Source: a phage. Taken from it: DNA of 64,000 nucleotides. Under the pieces are notes generated by a model. That model was given only the letters and a program-made list of their open reading frames with translations. It did no database searches and was not told the DNA's origin. Made by a program: the position numbers and the translations under genes. Shown here in pieces: positions 2,454-23,673 of the stretch (position 1 is the stretch's first letter; the number at the start of each line of letters is the position of its first letter). Location: the sequence record PZ154897.1, one strand, 5' to 3'.

Positions 2454-2656
2454 AAAAGATTCCTTTTAATGTATCTTTTAGACCATTCTATCATATCATC
2501 ATAATCTAAAAAGTATTCATCAAATTCAGCCATGCAAACAACACCTTGTGCTGCTTTTGATGTGATATAAATTATTCCAACATATCTAGAATCTTCTTCG
2601 GTGTAATCAATATTTGCTATGAATTCATCGTTAATGTCAAATGTCGAAAACTTCAC
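2450..2656 (-). CDS. Hypothetical small protein (46.x-like)
   Basis: ORF track 2450..2713; likely true start is GTG at 2656 with SD AAGGA; N-terminus MKFSTFDINDEF resembles the N-terminus of the adjacent HNH ORF. Confidence 0.4.
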   Translation of the reverse strand: MKFSTFDINDEFIANIDYTEEDSRYVGIIYITSKAAQGVVCMAEFDEYFLDYDDMIEWSKRYIKRNLL

Positions 2657-2900
2657 AGTATGCATCCTTAATACAAGATACAGCCATATCTTGTAATGAT
2701 TTAGGTGTGTCATTATCTAAAATGTTGAAGTTAAAAGATACAGCCCAGTCAGTGCAGACCGTGACCTTTTTAATACAATTATCTTCAACCTCTAACGGTT
2801 CAAACCAATATTCAATAATTTCTTTATGCCCAATATCATCTTTTACTTCACATTCAAAATGCTGACTCATCATAACATTTTTAAATTCATCAAAAGTCAT
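2637..2900 (-). CDS. Hypothetical protein, 87 aa
   Basis: ORF track; its ATG overlaps the gene 47 stop (ATGA), suggesting translational coupling. Confidence 0.45.
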   Translation of the reverse strand: MTFDEFKNVMMSQHFECEVKDDIGHKEIIEYWFEPLEVEDNCIKKVTVCTDWAVSFNFNILDNDTPKSLQDMAVSCIKDAYCEVFDI

Positions 2901-3916
2901 TGTGTTGCCTCTACATATAACTGATTTGCATATTGAATAAGTGCTTCGCGATCAGAATCAGTGATGTCTGGAATTGCATTAATGTATTCTTCCATCAACG
3001 TCTGAAGAGATTGAACTTCAACTTCTTCGCTATCATCTGACTCGACAGAGTTATCAATCTTTGACACAACTCGTAATGAATGCACAACTTTTTCTAGTTC
3101 AGATTCGAACTTCGTTAGATTTTTGTCTACCTCAGTTACTATAACACGCACTGATAGATTTGTAAAATCTTTATAGTCAATTTTTCCCTTAAATGGATAC
3201 TGAATTCGACGATGCCAGGTAGTGTTGTTTGGAATAAATTCCATTCGTTCTGTTTCTGTATCAAACATCCAGAACCCGCGAGGGTCATTCTCGTCACCTG
3301 CAGTTAGTGTCCATGGTGTCCCAATATATCTGACGTTAGCAGCCTCAGAGATAGTATGGAAGTGACCAGACCACACCTCTTTATAAGTCTTAAGGAAATC
3401 AGGTTCAAGACCGTGAGATTTCATTCCTTTATAAAAATAAAATCCATTCAACTCCCAGTGACCAACACAAAAAGAAGCAGATGAAGTTTTGATGTGTTCA
3501 AGAATTTCACCAGTATTTTCTTCGCACATCCAAGGAATTAAATCAATCAAACATCCGTCAAAATCTACTGTAGTAGGCTTATCATATACTTTAACATTAG
3601 GATATTTAGCCAAAAGCTCAGTAGAGGCATTTGGATGCATTACATTTTTATAGTGGAGATCGTGATTTCCTACAATAGTATGTAATGTGATTCCAACGTC
3701 ATCAAGCATTTGAACTATTTCGCGAGCAAACTCCATAGTTTTATGCGTGATCGCTTTTCGCACATCAAAAATATCACCATATTGAATCCATACAGTAATT
3801 CCGTTTTTCTTAGAATATTCTATCGCTTGCTTAATTCCATCAATTTGAATACCGCGAATCCACTCATCATCAGCTTTAACGCCTAAATGCCAATCACCTA
3901 AATTTAAAATTTTCAT
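2897..3916 (-). CDS. 47: Recombination endonuclease subunit gp47 (Mre11/SbcD-like phosphoesterase)
   Basis: 339 aa; calcineurin-like motifs GDWHLG, GNHD, GHFH; same length as T4 gp47. Confidence 0.92.
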   Translation of the reverse strand: MKILNLGDWHLGVKADDEWIRGIQIDGIKQAIEYSKKNGITVWIQYGDIFDVRKAITHKTMEFAREIVQMLDDVGITLHTIVGNHDLHYKNVMHPNASTELLAKYPNVKVYDKPTTVDFDGCLIDLIPWMCEENTGEILEHIKTSSASFCVGHWELNGFYFYKGMKSHGLEPDFLKTYKEVWSGHFHTISEAANVRYIGTPWTLTAGDENDPRGFWMFDTETERMEFIPNNTTWHRRIQYPFKGKIDYKDFTNLSVRVIVTEVDKNLTKFESELEKVVHSLRVVSKIDNSVESDDSEEVEVQSLQTLMEEYINAIPDITDSDREALIQYANQLYVEATQ

Positions 3917-4069
3917 ATATCAAGAACCGTCATTGAAATGCAAAATAAAATTATTGAAATAAATCCATCTGGAGTGCTAAAGAACCCAATCCAACATGCT
4001 CTAGTGAATAGATAAAATGCAAGAAAAAGTATCACATATCCAAGAAATATCATTATATCAAACTCCGTA

Positions 4070-4095
4070 TAAAGCTAAAGGGCCGAAGCCCTTTA
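4070..4095 (-). terminator. Hairpin (stem AAAGGGC, UUCG loop) overlapping the a-gt stop codon; terminator or RNA-stabilising element
   Basis: Inverted repeat aaagggc-cgaa-gcccttt at 4077-4094; U-rich tract downstream on minus strand is interrupted. Confidence 0.4.
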
Positions 4096-5295
4096 TTTTG
4101 TAATAATGTCAAACTGTTCTTTAAAGCAGAAGCTTGAATCTTGATGCTGATACAAAAATTCATAAGCTTTTTCACGTTCACGGTCATAAAGAGCTCGGTC
4201 AGATGACAGTTCTTTAATACGTTCAAATGTTGATTCCATGTCATTTTCATCAAACCAAACGATACCGCTATCGTGTGAAATTAATGGAGTATTATCAACA
4301 CGGAATTTTAAATTTTCGCCAGTACATTTCCAAAATACCGGAATTGTTCCACATGCACCAAGCTCGAGATGAGTATATTCTAAAGAACGTTGTAGATATT
4401 TTTTGTCCAACTTACTCAGCTGATAACCAAATCCGGATTTACTCATGCGTTCAAGCATTTCGCTATTTACATAACGGTCGAGAATTTGCGTCGGCAAATT
4501 AGGAGCAATTTTAATTTGGTCTACTTGGTGAAGACGATAATACTCGTATGGAATTCCTTTTTCTTTAATAGGAATGAACGCTGGAGAACGTTCCAGACCT
4601 TCCATAATAGTACTTAGTCCTGCAGGTTTAAGATGTTTTTCATGAAAATCAAACATCTGATAAAAACCTTTCCATGTAGTCGTACGACCAATCCAACGGT
4701 TGATATTCATGTTAATTTCAGAAACATCTTTCCAGTAGGTTGACCGAACCTTCGCAATATCCATAGGAGGCTGAAAGTTATATACTGCCGGTGCTTCTTC
4801 AATATCATCAAACAGAGAAACTGTTTCAGGATACCATTCTTTCATCAGAACTTTATTAAAATCACCATTATCAGAATGGCTAAAAATAACATCAGCTCGA
4901 CGAACAGTTTCTTCTAATCCCAAATTTCGGCGCAAAGAAAGAGAAGAATGGTCATGTTGATAAACTACAACACGAACAGAAGGTTTAATGTTATCAATAA
5001 TTTTTTTATAGTTATTAATAGTGTCTTCTTCAACCGAAGTAGCAGGAACTGAATTGATAATTAGAATATCACAATCATTTACCAGCTTAAGTGTTTTATC
5101 GTATTCTTTTGCCAATAAAACTGGAATTGAAAATGATTTATAATCATGCGCGCAATTACGAGTAAATGATTTATCTTTAGCATAAACCAAAGTCACTTCA
5201 TGACCATTTTTAATAAACCAATCACGTTGCTCGAGTGAGAATTTTGTTACACCACAACCTTCAAGACCTCGAGCCATAAAAATACATACTTTCAT
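4093..5295 (-). CDS. a-gt: DNA alpha-glucosyltransferase
   Basis: 400 aa, N-terminus MKVCIFMARGLEGCGVTKFSLEQRDWFIKNGHEV; length and position as T4 a-gt. Confidence 0.88.
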   Translation of the reverse strand: MKVCIFMARGLEGCGVTKFSLEQRDWFIKNGHEVTLVYAKDKSFTRNCAHDYKSFSIPVLLAKEYDKTLKLVNDCDILIINSVPATSVEEDTINNYKKIIDNIKPSVRVVVYQHDHSSLSLRRNLGLEETVRRADVIFSHSDNGDFNKVLMKEWYPETVSLFDDIEEAPAVYNFQPPMDIAKVRSTYWKDVSEINMNINRWIGRTTTWKGFYQMFDFHEKHLKPAGLSTIMEGLERSPAFIPIKEKGIPYEYYRLHQVDQIKIAPNLPTQILDRYVNSEMLERMSKSGFGYQLSKLDKKYLQRSLEYTHLELGACGTIPVFWKCTGENLKFRVDNTPLISHDSGIVWFDENDMESTFERIKELSSDRALYDREREKAYEFLYQHQDSSFCFKEQFDIITK

Positions 5296-14673: not shown

Positions 14674-14994
14674 TTATAGCGTAATCCATTCTCGTATTGT
14701 CTGAGTTACTACACGTTCACGGGGCTCGACTAATTCAACAGTCGGAACTGCATAATACCAGTCAGAATGGTAAGAACCTGAGCGAGATTCATTTACAGAC
14801 ACATGAACGTTATGTTTTGGACTAAAATAAACACACTGACGATATTGACATTTACCGTCTTGCACCCAGTCTTCTATTTCGACAGGTTTAAGATAATCGG
14901 AAAAATCGAAATCATAGTTTTCTGAAAATGCATCATGGTCTTCAATGATTTCACTCAGAACTGCATCAACATCTAATTTATTTTCAATATTCAT
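14674..14994 (-). CDS. Hypothetical acidic protein, 106 aa
   Basis: ORF track. Confidence 0.45.
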   Translation of the reverse strand: MNIENKLDVDAVLSEIIEDHDAFSENYDFDFSDYLKPVEIEDWVQDGKCQYRQCVYFSPKHNVHVSVNESRSGSYHSDWYYAVPTVELVEPRERVVTQTIREWITL

Positions 14995-15654: not shown

Positions 15655-15912
15655 TTATTCCTTAATTCCTAGTACTTGTTTAAAAGTCTCGTCGTAATCA
15701 AGACTTTGGCCCGTTTGTTCTTTATGTTTGTATATAATATCACTTACTTCTGATAGCATATTTTTATATGAACGAGTTAAAGCAGATTTAAGCACGCTGT
15801 ATCTATCAGGAAATTTACCGTGTTCATTATAATACGCTATTGCTAATTCACGGACTGCCTTTTCAGCAATCTCCATATATTCTTTACGCTTTTTCATTTT
15901 CTTCTCGGTCAA
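15655..15912 (-). CDS. Hypothetical protein, 85 aa
   Basis: ORF track. Confidence 0.45.
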
Positions 15913-16201
15913 ATCGGTGTTTGCAATGACGACATTTATAACGAAGAATACTAGTCTGCCAATGAACTAATTGTACCTGTTCAGTACCACATTTTGGGCA
16001 GTTCGGAACATTCTTAGAAGCCCTTTCGCGGCGTTCAACCATAACCATAATAGCATCCCATGCCGGAGGTTTAAAATCTAAATCGTCACAACCATGAATC
16101 TTTCCACGCATTTCCAGATCGTCTTCTTCACCAGCCATAATAATTTTAATTAGACTAGAATTACTTGAAGCTGCAATGTCTTCTAATAGACGCTTTTTCA
16201 T
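15884..16201 (-). CDS. Zinc-ribbon protein, 105 aa
   Basis: CPKCG...CRHCKH four-cysteine motif. Confidence 0.45.
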
Positions 16202-17127
16202 TTCAATACCTCAATAGCATTACGTAAACCATTTGCTTTTGCATTAAGAGCTTTTAACAATTTGGTGTGTTCGGCAATCTGGGCTTCAACTTCAACCAAT
16301 CGAGATTTGAGATATTCACGTTCTTCACTCAGGTTATCAACCTTTTCTACTTTAGGTTCTTTTACATCTGGCTTATATGTATTAGGGTTCTTCAGTTTAA
16401 TTAGAATGCGTGAACTGTATAACATTGAACCATTATCTTCGGTTTCGTCATACATTTCCACTACGTCCATAATTTTTAGCATCATGCGGAGTTTATAAGA
16501 CAACGAACGAATAGTTTTGTTATGCTTATTAATTTCTCTAGCATTCATGGTGCCGAGATTACGTGAGTAATAATAAGGAACCTGGATATTAATTAATACT
16601 GATGAACCACCTGGCTTGTGTGTTACTTCATCAGCAATAACCCAATCCTTAACATGAACTGTATTTGTACGGTCATCACCCGCGGTAAACAGTTTGCGAG
16701 CATGCTTAAAAAGCATATTCACTTGGTCATTGAATTGACAAGCAAATTTATCAGCAAATTTAGTTTCAGGAATGGTAGATAACCAATCAGCCAAATGAGT
16801 CTTTTTAACATCGTTAACAATAGTAAATTCAACCAAATCAGTTATAGATGTCTCAGATTTAATAAAGCTCGGCTTCATAAAGTTTTTAATGTTATCGCGA
16901 GCTACAGTAGAAGATAACATACGAGAACGTTTAAACCATTCAAGCAAATTGCCTAACGAATGAGAATAAGCGTTTTGAGTATCTTTACAGATATGATTTT
17001 CCTGGCCAACATATTGAAGGAAATCACGAAGAATATTATTGATTACTGCTCTGTGCCCGATTTGATAATTACGGTGTTTAGTAATAAGACTGTCAAAATA
17101 ATCAATATAATGTTTACGAGTTTTCAT
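16198..17127 (-). CDS. Hypothetical protein, tandem paralog A; globular N-domain plus C-terminal coiled coil
   Basis: 309 aa; shares motif MLFKHARKLFTAGDD with the three downstream ORFs; heptad-like C-terminus. Confidence 0.6.
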   Translation of the reverse strand: MKTRKHYIDYFDSLITKHRNYQIGHRAVINNILRDFLQYVGQENHICKDTQNAYSHSLGNLLEWFKRSRMLSSTVARDNIKNFMKPSFIKSETSITDLVEFTIVNDVKKTHLADWLSTIPETKFADKFACQFNDQVNMLFKHARKLFTAGDDRTNTVHVKDWVIADEVTHKPGGSSVLINIQVPYYYSRNLGTMNAREINKHNKTIRSLSYKLRMMLKIMDVVEMYDETEDNGSMLYSSRILIKLKNPNTYKPDVKEPKVEKVDNLSEEREYLKSRLVEVEAQIAEHTKLLKALNAKANGLRNAIEVLK

Positions 17128-17179
17128 GTTCTTCTCACTTGGTTAATGATTTATACTCCGAGCCATCCTTGGCTTTAAA

Positions 17180-18181
17180 TTACTTAATTAATTGTAAAGC
17201 TTGTTCCAGACGATCCAGACGATTAACAGATTCTTCCCAAATCCTTTTAGTCTTCTCATATTCTTTCTGTGCTTTATTAGAAATTTCTAGAGCTTCTTTA
17301 TAAGCTTTTTCTAATGCAATAACTTCTGGACGAATTTCTACCGGTTCAGGTGAATCGTCAAGACATTCCATTAGTTCCTCAAGGGTAGTTTCTTCTTTAG
17401 GAGTATTCACAATTTCTTCGCATTTTTGTTGATAAATTTCTTTATCAGTCGGTGAGTACGCACGCTTTACTTCACGAAGGCTAATTATAATTTTATATCC
17501 TTCCCAACCACACATATTTTTGAAAGGATATGTATGAATACTTTTTACAGTTTCCATACAGCCCAAAGCCGCCTCTAATTGATAAGTTATAGTGCTAGCA
17601 ATTGAGAAAAATTTATTAATATTCTTTTGGTTAGCGTTTGGTGTAAAAAATCCATAATTCACAAAAATAGCTACTTTATTTTTATCAAGCTCATATTCTT
17701 TTACGATAATCATATCAGAAGCCAAAGGATGAATTTGACGATAATCGCCATAGCATAATTTAGAAGCTGATTTTAGAATTTGTCCTTTAAAAAGTCTGAA
17801 ATTACTAATCCAACGACGAGTAAAAATATTCTCAGGGTCTTCTTTATTATTAAGATGATAAGAATTAACATCACCGAACCAATTATATCCTACTACATCT
17901 TTAGTTCGTTTAATTTCTTTCCCAAATTTACTAAGAATATCTCTGTTGACTAAGTATGAAAGAAGACGAGACCCTTTAAAGGTTTTCTTAATGTCTTCTT
18001 TATCTGTACGACTAGAAATTTCACGAACTTCATGAATAAATTTGCCAGAAGAAACAATACTTGCATCAGTATTATTGAGCCATTGATTGATAATAGAAAT
18101 CAAACTATTCTGACTAGACATAGGTTTAACTTTATCATCAATAACGCTGTTGAACGATTTGATATATTCGTTGCGAGTCAT
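17180..18181 (-). CDS. Hypothetical protein, tandem paralog B
   Basis: ORF track 17180..18232 trimmed to ATG 18181 (SD GAGGAG), because an early promoter occupies 18210-18239; motif RLFKGQILKSASKLCYGDY. Confidence 0.6.
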   Translation of the reverse strand: MTRNEYIKSFNSVIDDKVKPMSSQNSLISIINQWLNNTDASIVSSGKFIHEVREISSRTDKEDIKKTFKGSRLLSYLVNRDILSKFGKEIKRTKDVVGYNWFGDVNSYHLNNKEDPENIFTRRWISNFRLFKGQILKSASKLCYGDYRQIHPLASDMIIVKEYELDKNKVAIFVNYGFFTPNANQKNINKFFSIASTITYQLEAALGCMETVKSIHTYPFKNMCGWEGYKIIISLREVKRAYSPTDKEIYQQKCEEIVNTPKEETTLEELMECLDDSPEPVEIRPEVIALEKAYKEALEISNKAQKEYEKTKRIWEESVNRLDRLEQALQLIK

Positions 18182-18209
18182 ATTAATCTCCTCAGTAGAA
18201 AGTAAGAAC

Positions 18210-18239
18210 ATTATACCACATCCTTGTGGCAAAGTAAAC
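18210..18239 (-). promoter_or_regulatory. T4-type early promoter (-35 GTTTAC, 17-bp spacer, TGGTATAAT)
   Basis: Plus-strand attatacca at 18210-18218 and gtaaac at 18234-18239. Confidence 0.55.
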
Positions 18240-19267
18240 TAGTTTAGTGCATTTAGTGCATTGTTCAGTTTAGAACGTTGCTTCGTGAGATTTTTGACTT
18301 TTTCTTGAGCTTTTTCTAGCATCTTTTCAGCTTCTAGCACTTCATTAGTTGCTTTAACGAGTTCATCATCTACTGCCTTGATAGACTTCTCAATCGCATC
18401 TGCATGCCATTTTTCAACAGGTTTAAGACTCGGATTTTCAACAGGAAGAAAATTCACTTTATTGAATTTCCATTCATCCTTATTACCTGAACTATACATC
18501 CAAAATTTAGGATCGTTTGATAAGTAATTGGATAAATTTAAATTTAAGTTATCTTGCACTTCCTGCTTTTTCTCTTGCGTGACTTCGTCCTTTCTCAAAA
18601 AATCGTATTTAAATGAAACGATCATATCAAGTTCATATGTTGTTGTGTCTAATTTAAATCGTTCGAAATGCTGTGAAATCTTAGACTGAACAGCAGCAAC
18701 AACATCCATATACTTAAATGCTTCTGTCAACTGCGATTTAAGGCATTCGCAAATTGAAAGAGAATTTTTTGTATTAGGTTTAAAGCTAATTCGTGCGGTT
18801 CTATTATTTTCTTTTAATGGTCTTACTTCCATCTGAAGAGTATAACCATCAAATTTCAGATTCTTTAAATTAATATCAGAACCTTTTAATCGACTCGCAG
18901 TTGATAAAATTTGCTTTAATTGCCTACGGAACAGAGCAATAAATCTCCATTCAATACGATAATGATTTGGATTGAAAAATCCAGATGATAAATCGACCTT
19001 ACTTTGGCCAACGCCTTGAACAAATAGAGGATTTTTATAATCAATAGTTTTACAGAAATCGGTGAGCTGCTCACGAGCAGTCATTTGTGTAATATATCCC
19101 GCTTTATTAAAATTACGCACCCATTCACTGCTATTCGTATACTTAAAGTGATGAATAACACGATTAACTTTATCAGGGTCTAAATTATTTTCACACAAAA
19201 ATGTCATAACATCACGAGTATAGCTGGCATTACGAACCATATCTTCAATTTGAGAACGAGTTTTCAT
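18239..19267 (-). CDS. Hypothetical protein, tandem paralog C
   Basis: 342 aa; motif LFRRQLKQILSTASRLKGSD; coiled-coil C-terminus. Confidence 0.6.
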   Translation of the reverse strand: MKTRSQIEDMVRNASYTRDVMTFLCENNLDPDKVNRVIHHFKYTNSSEWVRNFNKAGYITQMTAREQLTDFCKTIDYKNPLFVQGVGQSKVDLSSGFFNPNHYRIEWRFIALFRRQLKQILSTASRLKGSDINLKNLKFDGYTLQMEVRPLKENNRTARISFKPNTKNSLSICECLKSQLTEAFKYMDVVAAVQSKISQHFERFKLDTTTYELDMIVSFKYDFLRKDEVTQEKKQEVQDNLNLNLSNYLSNDPKFWMYSSGNKDEWKFNKVNFLPVENPSLKPVEKWHADAIEKSIKAVDDELVKATNEVLEAEKMLEKAQEKVKNLTKQRSKLNNALNALN

Positions 19268-19275
19268 GGTATTCC

Positions 19276-20202
19276 TTAAGATTTAAGTAAATCAACAATT
19301 TTAATTAACTTTTCACGCTCAGATTTAGCTTTACTACTCAGTCCAGATAGTCTGAAAATTTCATCGTCATATTGTTGAATAGAAATATTCAGCTCTTCAA
19401 TCTGCTTATTAAAATAATCAATTTGTTCAGAATGTTTTTCGTTACTACGAACTGGTACAGGTTTTGTAGGCAATTTAGTTGAACTGGATTCATCCGGGCG
19501 ATAAATTAAAATACAACTTGAACCAATAGGGCATTTAGCACCAGATGAATATTCTAGTGTTCCAGCTTCTTTTAAAACTTCAAAAGCTAAACAGAGATGA
19601 TGACCCATATTGACATAATCTGTAGAGCGAGCTCTGATGTAATAATCATCTCCGCGAATACTAAATTTAAAGCATTTAAGGTCTTCTGTATTATTGGTCT
19701 TAAAAATCATTTGTTTATCTAGACCTTTAGCTAATCGAGCGCCCAATGCTAATAATCGTCGTTGATTTTCCCACAAATCCGCAATCATTTGATCGAATGA
19801 TAATTTTGGCATTAGTCGACCATAAAGGTCATATCCTTTATTATAATTACGAAGGATTTCGCTCGCATTAATACGAGACAACGCTCCAATTTTATTAAGG
19901 GCTTTCATAATGCGATTAGATAAACTCATTCCAGACCCGGTTGTTCGCTGCAAATGTTTTTCTAATCCAAATCCAATATCAACTTTAAACTTATCTAAAA
20001 TTTCTGCATGAACATCTTTGTCGATAACATTCAAATCCAAAGTTGGGTTAAATCTATGAAAAAATTTATCTGGCTCTCCACGGCGAAGTACAGTCCATTC
20101 ATTCATCATTTTTTTATTAACTAATGATTTAATTACTGCATTGACATTATTAATTACTACTGACATATTTTCCTCACTCAATTTCAATTTTACTAAATAC
20201 AC
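19276..20202 (-). CDS. Hypothetical protein, tandem paralog D
   Basis: 308 aa; motif QRRLLALGARLAKGLD; coiled-coil C-terminus. Confidence 0.6.
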   Translation of the reverse strand: MYLVKLKLSEENMSVVINNVNAVIKSLVNKKMMNEWTVLRRGEPDKFFHRFNPTLDLNVIDKDVHAEILDKFKVDIGFGLEKHLQRTTGSGMSLSNRIMKALNKIGALSRINASEILRNYNKGYDLYGRLMPKLSFDQMIADLWENQRRLLALGARLAKGLDKQMIFKTNNTEDLKCFKFSIRGDDYYIRARSTDYVNMGHHLCLAFEVLKEAGTLEYSSGAKCPIGSSCILIYRPDESSSTKLPTKPVPVRSNEKHSEQIDYFNKQIEELNISIQQYDDEIFRLSGLSSKAKSEREKLIKIVDLLKS

Positions 20203-20607: not shown

Positions 20608-20640
20608 ACCATTATACCATCCTTGGTATAAAGCGGTTAT
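20608..20640 (-). promoter_or_regulatory. Probable early promoter (extended -10 TGGTATAAT; weak -35)
   Basis: Plus-strand ccattatacca at 20609-20619. Confidence 0.35.
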
Positions 20641-21164
20641 GCGAGTACCGTCTTTAACCGTTCTTCAAACTTCCGAAGAGTATTTTGGCGTTCAGCTCTT
20701 TGCTTTTTGTAAGTTTCAATACGCTCTGAAATGAGAGTGTATCGTTCATTTACTGATTCTTTCATAAAATCAGGAATTTCACGAGAAGCTTTAATCTCAT
20801 CAAATTTATCAATAACAGCTTGCTCTTCAGCAATTAAGTTATCATACATTAAAATATCTTTCTTGATGAACTCAATATCTTCTTGAGTTACACGAGATAA
20901 TTTAGATGCTTTATCCTTTTTGTACTGTTCGTTAGTATCACGAGACCAGTGTAATGTACGATTTTTATTCGTATTCTTGTAAATTTCTACAATACCAATC
21001 TCATCAATAATAACGATCCAATTCCAACGGGATTTGTAAATTTGTCCTCCATCAACAGTGATTTCACCTCCGATTGAGATGTCGTTAAAGAACTTACTCT
21101 GTACTTCAGATTTAAATTTACCATCGTTGTAATTTACTAAGTTGAAAATATCTTTAGCGTTCAT
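20637..21164 (-). CDS. Hypothetical protein, 175 aa, coiled-coil C-terminus
   Basis: ORF track; SD GGAGG upstream of ATG. Confidence 0.55.
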   Translation of the reverse strand: MNAKDIFNLVNYNDGKFKSEVQSKFFNDISIGGEITVDGGQIYKSRWNWIVIIDEIGIVEIYKNTNKNRTLHWSRDTNEQYKKDKASKLSRVTQEDIEFIKKDILMYDNLIAEEQAVIDKFDEIKASREIPDFMKESVNERYTLISERIETYKKQRAERQNTLRKFEERLKTVLA

Positions 21165-21628: not shown

Positions 21629-22597
21629 TTATTTCAGAAGAGTAACCTCAGCAATTTCTTCCCAACCGTTTTTGTCGGTCATAATAAAGTCAGCAAGATA
21701 AAGAGCAGTACGCAGTGAAACATTGCGTAAACGGTTAACATTAACTTTCATCCATGATAATGCTTTATAAGTTTCTTCATCAGAAAGACCGCGCTTTTGC
21801 ATCATGTCAGTTGAAAGAATAACATCTTCAACCCTGACCATAATTTCTTCATTAGTGTGAACACCCAAATCTAAATAAACCGAGCGGGACACTAATGCTT
21901 GTAAGTGTGGAGCAAGTTTAGTACCACGGTCTAATTCGCGGTCAATGTCAACGTTTGTGATAAAAACAATCGTTCCTTTAAATTCAAACTCACGCTCAAT
22001 GCCTTTTTCTTCTAAGTAAGAAGATGCAGTGCTCCAGCAGACTTTACGGGTTTCTCCGGTGTCCAGAGCGGCTTTTAGAAGATTAAGAATGTCCATATCA
22101 GAGAAAACATCCACATCATCAATCAAAAGGACAGAATTCTCTTCACGATTATTCCAAAGCTGCTCATAAAGACCAATACCAGAGATTTTACCATTAATGC
22201 TTTTATATTCAATGTATCCAATATCATTTGCTTTATTTAAAGCTTTATCTAAAGAATACGTTTTACCAATACCTGCTGCGCCAGAGATAATTAATGAACG
22301 AATATTTCCATTAATAATACCATTCGTCATCATTCCCATAACATTAAATCTTTTATTAATGCGGGTTTTCATATCTTCATATGATTCTTTAACTTCTTCA
22401 ACTTTTACACCATCATATGAAATATCTGATTTGTAAACCCAAACACCGCGACGTTTACCGTCAATTTCAACAAAAACTTTACCATCTCCTTGTGCATCTA
22501 CCGGAGCATTATCTGGGAACCATTCGCCTAAGAGCTCAAAAGTTCCAGAGATTTCTTTACCGAAGTAGATACCCTTATTGATAGTTACAGTTTTCAT
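21629..22597 (-). CDS. P-loop NTPase (Walker A GAAGIGKT, Walker B VLLIDDVD)
   Basis: ORF track 21629..22663 trimmed to ATG 22597 (MKTVTINKG) preceded by SD GGAGA. Confidence 0.65.
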   Translation of the reverse strand: MKTVTINKGIYFGKEISGTFELLGEWFPDNAPVDAQGDGKVFVEIDGKRRGVWVYKSDISYDGVKVEEVKESYEDMKTRINKRFNVMGMMTNGIINGNIRSLIISGAAGIGKTYSLDKALNKANDIGYIEYKSINGKISGIGLYEQLWNNREENSVLLIDDVDVFSDMDILNLLKAALDTGETRKVCWSTASSYLEEKGIEREFEFKGTIVFITNVDIDRELDRGTKLAPHLQALVSRSVYLDLGVHTNEEIMVRVEDVILSTDMMQKRGLSDEETYKALSWMKVNVNRLRNVSLRTALYLADFIMTDKNGWEEIAEVTLLK

Positions 22598-22659
22598 TTT
22601 ATTCTCCAAATCCGTATCAGTTGATAGTTGTATAGTACCATAAGCCCGAAGGCTCCCTA

Positions 22660-23673
22660 TCATTTATAATAACTTCGATGGTTTTCAAGATAGACCTTCT
22701 CAAGGAAGTCATCCCAGAAACTCATGTCTACTGTTTTAGGCATACCGTTCTTAGAAGCTTCAGTAGATGCTGCTTCTACTTGATCGACCACATCTTCCAA
22801 AAACTCTTGAACGGTTTTAAATGGATGTTTACCCAACTTCACGTCGAGAATAAATGGAGCGTCTTGAAGTGGATAAACCAAGTCACCAGTTTTGTAAATT
22901 TCCAATAGTTGAAGTCCACCACGACAAGCATGGCTCAGAGCTTTCCAGTCGATGCCTTCATTGGCTTCGGCCTTACGAGCGCGTTCACCATATTCAGCAT
23001 TTAATTTGTTCAGTGACTGCTTAAGCTCAATAAGAGAAAGCGTTGTCTGATATTTACGACCCAATACAGTATAGAACGTTTGTGGGCCTGTTTTCTCATG
23101 ATCATGGAACACCCATTCACAGAATTCGTTTTTTGGAAGACGATGCTTAATATCTTCAACTTTAGTACGACGCTGCTTAATGGAACCGTCTTCTTGGTAA
23201 TCAACCCATTGCTCAGGGATTTGATTAACTACTTTCAATACATCACGTAATGCAGCCAAACGAGAACCCTTGACACCGTATTTAGAAGCTTGCTTACGGA
23301 CATATCCTAAATAGGATTTCATGTTAGTCGTATAAAAACGAGAACGGTTGTCTTGAATAAACTTCCACACATCAGGCAAATCAGATTTAACCACTAGTTC
23401 AGGTGGAGTGTGAAGCATATCCAATGCTACAGTTTCACCATCTGCTGCTAATTTAAAGAAATACTTAAGACTATACAATTCGTGGTCAATATCATCTTTA
23501 GTGTTTTTAGATGATGTGTTGTTGGTGTTTTTACTCATGTGCTCTTTGACGTTTCCGATAAGAATATCACGAGCAGGAGGAACAAAAATTTCTTTAAAAT
23601 CTACATCAGATTCTGGAGTAGAAGTTCCATAAAGATGACTACCAAAATAGCTTTTCATTACTGTTTTCATCAT
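22660..23673 (-). CDS. Nucleotidyltransferase-fold protein (Pol-beta superfamily motif GS-x11-DVD)
   Basis: 337 aa; N-terminal GSHLYGTSTPESDVDF; directly upstream of the P-loop NTPase. Confidence 0.6.
   Translation of the reverse strand: MMKTVMKSYFGSHLYGTSTPESDVDFKEIFVPPARDILIGNVKEHMSKNTNNTSSKNTKDDIDHELYSLKYFFKLAADGETVALDMLHTPPELVVKSDLPDVWKFIQDNRSRFYTTNMKSYLGYVRKQASKYGVKGSRLAALRDVLKVVNQIPEQWVDYQEDGSIKQRRTKVEDIKHRLPKNEFCEWVFHDHEKTGPQTFYTVLGRKYQTTLSLIELKQSLNKLNAEYGERARKAEANEGIDWKALSHACRGGLQLLEIYKTGDLVYPLQDAPFILDVKLGKHPFKTVQEFLEDVVDQVEAASTEASKNGMPKTVDMSFWDDFLEKVYLENHRSYYK

Follow-up and report, generated by a model that had tools for sequence, protein, structure and literature searches.

Does a compact phage genome carry four copies of one gene side by side, and if so, what would it use them for? 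This question is raised by positions 16198-20202 of a stretch of 64,000 nucleotides (nt) of phage DNA (sequence record PZ154897.1; the whole stretch is called the window below), where four consecutive open reading frames (ORFs) are indeed present on the minus strand. The original prediction had seen in them a tandem array of diverged paralogues, perhaps host-interaction or anti-defence factors, which could not be assigned to any known family. The genes are long-known ORFs of phage T4, nrdC.3 to nrdC.6, one of which has a published role, and they do not constitute a new kind of system. Judging from profile comparisons and predicted structures, however distant the resemblance, all four are homologous: very old and highly diverged copies of one gene. 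As to their function, we incline slightly towards an expanded family of early, oligomeric and non-enzymatic proteins that would bind immune proteins, NrdC.5 acting against Dsr1 and its paralogues against other targets; taken as a whole, this statement is held with modest confidence.

Identity and limits of the four genes

The window is a segment of a Tequatrovirus genome. In a megablast search, the 4-kb region of the array matched 657 phage records, with Shigella phage SH-1 as the best match (97.5% identity) and T4 at about 90%; 92% of the region aligns with the T4 record U76612, annotated from nrdC.3 to nrdC.7, at an identity of 90.5%. All four genes keep the order and the position between nrdC.2 and nrdC.7 that they have in T4, and the identity of their products to the T4 proteins, counted in amino acids (aa), amounts to 61% for nrdC.3, 89% for nrdC.4, 96% for nrdC.5 and 98% for nrdC.6. 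By sequence and position, they are the orthologues of T4 nrdC.3, nrdC.4, nrdC.5 and nrdC.6, with products of 309, 333, 342 and 296 aa (labelled A, B, C and D, respectively). That they could not be assigned to any known family from the sequence alone, as the original prediction had stated, no longer holds, since they fall into existing Pfam and PHROGs families, all of unknown function. The genes and their parts are as follows:

16198..17127, minus strand: A, the nrdC.3 orthologue, 309 aa; based on the ORF, the T4 annotation, phrog_1435 and a BLASTP match to B
Parts of A, minus strand: segment 1 at nt 16876-16926 (aa 68-84); motif at nt 16672-16716 (aa 138-152); predicted C-terminal helix at nt 16201-16332
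17180..18181, minus strand: B, the nrdC.4 orthologue, 333 aa from its ATG; based on the T4 annotation and phrog_1435
Parts of B, minus strand: segment 1 at nt 17921-17971 (aa 71-87); motif at nt 17741-17797 (aa 129-147); predicted C-terminal helix at nt 17183-17329
18239..19267, minus strand: C, the nrdC.5 orthologue, 342 aa; based on Pfam DUF7235 (expectation value, E, 6e-126), identity to T4 and HHalign matches to A and B
Parts of C, minus strand: segment 1 at nt 19052-19102 (aa 56-72); motif at nt 18875-18934 (aa 112-131); predicted C-terminal helix at nt 18242-18421
19276..20166, minus strand: D, the nrdC.6 orthologue, 296 aa from its ATG; based on the T4 annotation, an AlphaFold2 model and the bridging family described below
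Parts of D, minus strand: segment 1 at nt 19840-19890 (aa 93-109); motif at nt 19717-19764 (aa 135-150); predicted C-terminal helices at nt 19279-19440

Two of the starts given here differ from those of the mechanically called ORFs. Most likely, nrdC.4 begins with the ATG at 18181 (333 aa) rather than with the TTG at 18232, and nrdC.6 with the ATG at 20166 (296 aa) rather than with the GTG at 20202, because the T4 annotation as well as the lengths of the homologues favour these inner starts; the real span of the array would therefore be 16198-20166. It should also be noted that nrdC.6 in U76612 encodes 275 aa, the last 16 residues of which lie in another frame compared with the 296-aa version of the current T4 annotation. 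This frame difference is probably due to a sequencing error in the record, which dates from the 1990s.

Common descent and shared architecture

When the four proteins and their neighbours were compared pairwise by BLASTP, a sole link appeared, that between A and B (25% identity over 226 aa, E 2e-7). In PHROGs, nrdC.3 and nrdC.4 both belong to phrog_1435, and nrdC.5 and nrdC.6 are placed in separate families (phrog_2351 and phrog_2257). C matches DUF7235 over model positions 1-307 of 307 with 420.5 bits (E 5.8e-126; the gathering threshold is 30 bits), and a Pfam scan left A, B and D unmatched by this model; among precomputed Pfam matches, PF26897 and PF26899 are given for nrdC.4 and nrdC.6; like DUF7235, these are families of unknown function. 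Beyond DUF7235, the scans of Pfam, NCBIfam and PADLOC returned nothing informative. Sequence searches of the PDB with B, C and the family profile found no homologue of the core, only chance matches to caspases (E above 0.4) and coiled-coil proteins.

More distant kinship was addressed with profiles built from family alignments, which comprised database homologues as well as the strongly diverged genes that stand in the place of nrdC.5 in phages MN01 and JS10. In HHalign, the joint profile of A and B (AB) matched C with a probability of 93% (E 3e-7), and with the tails cut off the match persisted at 91% (E 1e-6). The direct profile-profile comparison of D with AB or C was not significant (E 0.03-0.14); the best direct alignments of D nonetheless place the internal motif in register. 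When 1.84 billion representatives were searched exhaustively by HMMER with the nrdC.6 profile, only 14 proteins emerged, three of which are distant relatives of 288-345 aa from other T4-like phages. The profile of these three sequences, the bridging family, matched D with a probability of 98.6% (E 8e-16), C with 97.8% (E 1e-12) and AB with 95% (E 4e-8); reduced to the cores without tails, the probabilities were 95% for D, 76% for C and 93% for AB. Controls with unrelated neighbouring proteins and with reversed profiles gave E values of 0.1-0.75.

Because the profile links persist without the tails and the controls are clean, we regard a common origin of all four genes as established by these comparisons, even though nrdC.3, nrdC.4 and nrdC.6 share only about 13-25% identity with NrdC.5. 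It could be argued instead that the likeness reflects similar composition and coiled-coil tails in four genes unrelated by descent, as would fit the single pairwise BLASTP link, the three separate database families and the lack of significance when the D profile is compared with those of B and C. This explanation is, however, largely refuted and in our view extremely improbable: the profile matches survive tail removal, reversed profiles and unrelated neighbours reach no better than E 0.1-0.75, the predicted structures share topology and Foldseek neighbours, and single-copy relatives are found at the same locus in other genera. The tandem family of diverged paralogues that had been predicted is thus supported.

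The proteins have a common build, in which a variable helical N-terminal domain is followed by two conserved segments, an alpha/beta core, a linker and a long C-terminal helix. The internal motif of the original prediction is the second conserved segment; it is present in all four proteins and in register in the profile alignments, and the other shared segment it had mentioned was likewise recovered in each of them as segment 1 (positions as listed above). The consensus of segment 1 reads LS...A...L..FG, that of segment 2 F......N....LA...RL..G..R. In the multiple alignment, further shared patterns are a helix with ..AL.....V., PVE......IE at the opening of the tail, and a terminal R-x-K-L-x-x-A-x-x-L-K. 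Describing the N-terminal halves as highly diverged was roughly right; however, the start M(K)TR-x-EYI is still common to nrdC.3, nrdC.4 and nrdC.5, and alignable sequence starts at about residue 50-80.

Structural comparison was made with AlphaFold2 models of NrdC.4 and NrdC.6. The model of NrdC.4, with a mean predicted local distance difference test score (pLDDT) of 84, comprises a helical N-terminal domain (1-84), an alpha/beta core (88-235), a disordered linker (261-282) and a helix (285-332); between the N-terminal domain and the linker, a three-strand meander is followed by three short helices bearing the motif (119-148), a hairpin, a long helix and a second hairpin. In the model of NrdC.6 (pLDDT 76) the meander is weak, the order of elements is that of NrdC.4 from the motif helices onward, and the tail is formed by helices 243-272 and 278-295. 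When searched against BFVD with Foldseek, the NrdC.4 model matched NrdC.6 of phage JS10 (E 2.9e-5, probability 1.0), as well as uncharacterised proteins of 300-370 aa from T4-like phages of Acinetobacter, Klebsiella, Pectobacterium, Erwinia, Serratia and Yersinia. Five Foldseek neighbours are common to B and D (A0A7G3KGN9, A0A0A0PZG4, E5E4A2, A0A2Z4QAR2 and A0A1V0DXL6), and by these predictions the two proteins have the same fold.

The heptad-rich C-termini which had been predicted are seen as long helices in the models of B and D, and the heptad score exceeds that of at least 298 of 300 shuffled sequences for C and D; for A and B it is weaker, this score being home-made, crude and weakly discriminating for these two. 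Through the tail, the family profile matches coiled-coil chains in the PDB, and only such chains (Smc, IF1, prefoldin, fibritin). The tails can thus be predicted to be coiled coils, long C-terminal helices with heptad hydrophobics, and probably the conserved helix drives oligomerisation. An invariant column was absent from the 22-member family alignment, in which two leucines alone reach 90%, and no significant match to an enzyme family was obtained in Pfam, NCBIfam or PADLOC. Since there is neither an invariant polar residue nor an enzyme-family match, these proteins would act as scaffolds or binders rather than as enzymes. All four are basic, with isoelectric points (pI) of 8.4-9.3 for the whole proteins and 9.0-9.9 for the N-terminal regions. 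In NrdC.3, residues 30-86 weakly resemble the SAM-like domain found at the N-terminus of tyrosine recombinases, below the threshold in both libraries (E 0.086 in Pfam, E 0.0018 in NCBIfam).

Copy number and recombination in the array

To follow the family beyond Tequatrovirus, the interval from nrdC.11 to nrdC in other Straboviridae was scanned with the family profiles; a search of IMG/VR for related loci gave close relatives of nrdC.4 only, and the distant loci were reached via the conserved neighbour NrdC.11. As the original prediction had proposed to examine, copy number in the nrdC.x region does vary among T4-like phages, from one to four. A single copy is found in Kanagawavirus IME523, Mosugukvirus PM2, Jiaodavirus JD18 and Acinetobacter phage Berthold (here the match has a probability of 86%), two copies, nrdC.3 and nrdC.6 only, in Yersinia phage fPS-2 (a Tequatrovirus), and three in Dhakavirus JS10, Gaprivervirus MN01 and Mosigvirus Shf125875; T4 and the window have four. 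The single-copy proteins are of the bridging type and resemble all four paralogues, and because of this resemblance the simplest history is that one ancestral gene multiplied in the T-even lineages of E. coli. In four genera with one copy, this single member is directly preceded on its upstream side by a gene of about 260-270 aa (L018 6250-7020, L019 6593-7378, L020 16140-16928, L021 14015-14824); it has no match to the family profiles.

How copies are lost can be read from fPS-2. By direct comparison, two genes of the window begin with the same 12 nt:

17116..17127, minus strand: first 12 nt of nrdC.3, ATGAAAACTCGT (MKTR), identical to the start of nrdC.5
19256..19267, minus strand: the same 12 nt, ATGAAAACTCGT, opening nrdC.5; counterpart of the 12-mer at 17116-17127

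In fPS-2 (2501-4326), sequence from upstream of nrdC.5 is joined to the coding sequence of nrdC.3 exactly at ATGAAAACTCGT. The junction marks an unequal recombination between paralogues at the 12-nt start, which, as reconstructed from the sequences, deleted nrdC.4 and nrdC.5.

Two further rearranged proteins were encountered. P0120 (299 aa; on three contigs, one of 167 kb) is a natural chimera, NrdC.5(146-274)::NrdC.3(134-309), with the junction KFNKVN|MLFKH; such a chimera would remove nrdC.4. Its ORF begins at a Met inside nrdC.5, which may mean that the upstream part of the gene is damaged. P0122 (378 aa, Shigella phage Sf25) is a NrdC.6 in which an internal stretch, residues 177-259 (83 residues), is duplicated in tandem.

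Alleles appear to move as well. NrdC.3 of the window is 61% identical to its T4 counterpart (synonymous divergence, dS, about 1.1) and 77% identical to that of Mosigvirus Shf125875, whereas identity to T4 amounts to 88-99% in the genes on either side; this closer match to Mosigvirus between T4-like flanks indicates allele exchange between genera. Positive selection between orthologues was looked for in comparison with T4 by the ratio of nonsynonymous to synonymous divergence (dN/dS) and was not found, the values being 0.28 for nrdC.3, 0.21 for nrdC.4, 0.10 for nrdC.5 and 0.04 for nrdC.6 (the latter computed on the first 259 codons, as nrdC.6 of U76612 ends in a different frame). Each paralogue is therefore under purifying selection, with all copies functional. 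The selection for variation that had been suspected is not seen between orthologues, but does apply to gene content and alleles: variation in this family consists in genes gained or lost, alleles exchanged and chimeras formed, as the sequences compared here attest, and not of ongoing positive selection.

Proposed anti-defence function and its alternatives

For one of the four genes a function has been reported. A T4 clone with a large deletion failed on E. coli ECOR17 owing to the SIR2 defence gene dsr1, and plating of this phage on dsr1 cells was restored by T4 nrdC.5 expressed from a plasmid (Srikant, Guegler and Laub, eLife 2022, PMC9391042). NrdC.5 of the window is 95.9% identical to T4 NrdC.5, and the phenotype of this orthologue suggests that it, too, would counteract Dsr1. 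The notion of anti-defence factors is hence borne out for one member of the array. Because they are homologous to the anti-Dsr1 gene nrdC.5, nrdC.3, nrdC.4 and nrdC.6 become candidate immune inhibitors, those of T4 included. The four genes lie in an early region and are all non-essential in T4 according to transposon sequencing (supplement of bioRxiv 10.1101/2025.11.20.689424). One early promoter is a plausible element of the array itself:

18210..18238, minus strand: early promoter site resembling sigma-70 promoters (TTTACT-17-TATAAT, with TG); it lies in the 57 nt that separate nrdC.5 from nrdC.4 and comes from a consensus scan

Promoter-like sites occur in the region just as often as expected from shuffled sequence; the site at 18238-18210 owes its credibility to the T4 record U76612, where an early promoter upstream of nrdC.4 is annotated at this position.

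Our preferred explanation starts from one ancestral gene beside nrdC in T4-like phages, which would have been duplicated in tandem long ago into four. The products would be early-expressed, non-essential, non-enzymatic and oligomeric proteins, sharing a variable helical N-terminal domain, an alpha/beta core introduced by the two conserved helical segments, a flexible linker and a C-terminal coiled-coil helix. They may act stoichiometrically, binding and blocking host immune proteins, in the case of NrdC.5 the NAD+-depleting SIR2 defence protein Dsr1. Each paralogue could have specialised for a different target, and the array would then represent a small arsenal widening the host range. A more specific and quite unlikely elaboration sees a reusable inhibitor chassis in these proteins, i.e. 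early coiled-coil oligomers whose tail-terminator-like central domain copies the fold of a virion part and serves as a non-activating decoy, trapping sensors of the Dsr1 or Avs type, with each paralogue tuned to one sensor.

Several points weigh against the preferred explanation. Functional evidence exists for one of the four genes, and even there an indirect effect on Dsr1 is conceivable. Transposon screens of T4 and Bas37 on clinical E. coli strains gave no conditional phenotype for nrdC.3, nrdC.4 or nrdC.6 (10.1101/2025.11.20.689424). The kinship of D is drawn from transitive profile matches and predicted structures, with no significant direct sequence match, and the basic pI values together with the sub-threshold recombinase-domain match of NrdC.3 also fit proteins that bind nucleic acids.

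It is on these points that other explanations build. If nrdC.5 were the sole anti-defence gene, the other three would be accessory genes of the hyperplastic nrdC-mobD region with an unrelated or currently no function, in agreement with the published screens and with the fact that some phages dispense with several copies (fPS-2 has two, many genera have one). We find this rather doubtful, since purifying selection acts on every copy (dN/dS 0.04-0.28), the conserved segments and the tail have been kept in all of them, the screens took in few hosts, and lineage-specific loss is just what would be expected of host-specific counter-defence genes. An unlikely alternative makes the proteins nucleic-acid-binding or host-takeover regulators, NrdC.5 overcoming Dsr1 indirectly, for example via the timing or amount of the triggering phage product, and the paralogues being regulatory. 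That all four are early genes and basic, their N-terminal regions included, would suit such a role, as would the weak similarity of NrdC.3 to a recombinase domain; moreover, no mechanism for NrdC.5 was found in the literature searched. However, in an AT-rich genome (GC content about 0.33) basic proteins rich in lysine are nothing unusual, the recombinase matches are far below curated cut-offs and concern one paralogue only, the dispensability of the four genes on the laboratory host is typical of host-specific accessory factors, and nrdC.5 alone, supplied from a plasmid, sufficed to let the deletion phage plate on cells carrying Dsr1.

On the side of the defence protein, the sensor domain of Dsr1 was described to recognise phage major capsid proteins (2026 preprint 10.64898/2026.01.04.697583). 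Simple mimicry of the trigger by a tail-terminator-like core, which we had considered, does not fit a sensor reported to respond to the major capsid protein.

The surroundings of the array are of interest in the same respect. According to published work, gp49.2 is an inhibitor of OLD (PMC13096335), NrdC.1 of Septu and bas37_0203 of Druantia III (bioRxiv 10.1101/2025.11.20.689424). We had suspected bas37_0203 to be one of the four array genes; its coordinates and length show it to be an orthologue of nrdC.8. The corresponding genes of the window are:

14674-14994, minus strand: probable orthologue of T4 gp49.2, reported as anti-OLD in T6
15655-15912, minus strand: probable orthologue of nrdC.1, the T4 gene being reported as anti-Septu
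20637-21164, minus strand: orthologue of nrdC.8, 175 aa, equal in length and position to bas37_0203 of phage Bas37

With these orthologues around the array, the whole interval between gene 49 and nrdC.8 has the appearance of an anti-defence island. The nrdC.8 orthologue (20637-21164) has a charged helical C-terminal end with a heptad pattern. Further on, the products of nrdC.10 and nrdC.11 (21629-23673, minus strand) are an AAA-type ATPase-like protein and a nucleotidyltransferase; conservation of NrdC.11 extends over more than 1,500 phage records, including those of Vibrio and Aeromonas phages, and one record names it a polymerase-beta-family protein of an RNA-repair pathway.

Compared with the databases and papers searched, two aspects appear to be new. 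The families of nrdC.3/nrdC.4, nrdC.5 and nrdC.6, which are held apart by Pfam and PHROGs, form one superfamily, and the anti-Dsr1 factor therefore belongs to a tandemly expanded family of variable copy number. T-even phages contain many genes of unknown function, and their anti-defence genes have usually been discovered singly. As the core and the tail are conserved and the N-terminal domain is variable, determinants of target choice could be searched for by swapping parts. The array also offers a case for studying how an arsenal evolves, with one copy in several genera, three or four in phages of E. coli, and shrinkage via recombination of paralogues at the 12-nt start.

Among known systems, the closest is T4 NrdC.5 (DUF7235) itself, of which the gene at 18239-19267 is the orthologue, in the same position and with a full-length match to the model; nrdC.3, nrdC.4 and nrdC.6 are remote homologues of the same architecture, but do not match DUF7235. 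The array genes do not belong to the class of tail terminators (gpU-like, with the fold of lambda gpU), which are late structural genes of the tail module encoding about 130-190 aa. DSAD1, a phage inhibitor of the sirtuin defence DSR2, binds the defence protein directly; it resembles NrdC.5 as a phage protein directed against an NAD+-depleting SIR2 defence, and its direct binding is the type of mechanism proposed here for NrdC.5. The anti-defence clusters of T-even phages (the tifA-dmd-adfA island; IPI, IPII and IPIII) likewise consist of accessory, non-essential host-range genes in variable, recombining regions; they comprise unrelated inhibitors, however, whereas the array from nrdC.3 to nrdC.6 is one expanded homologous family.

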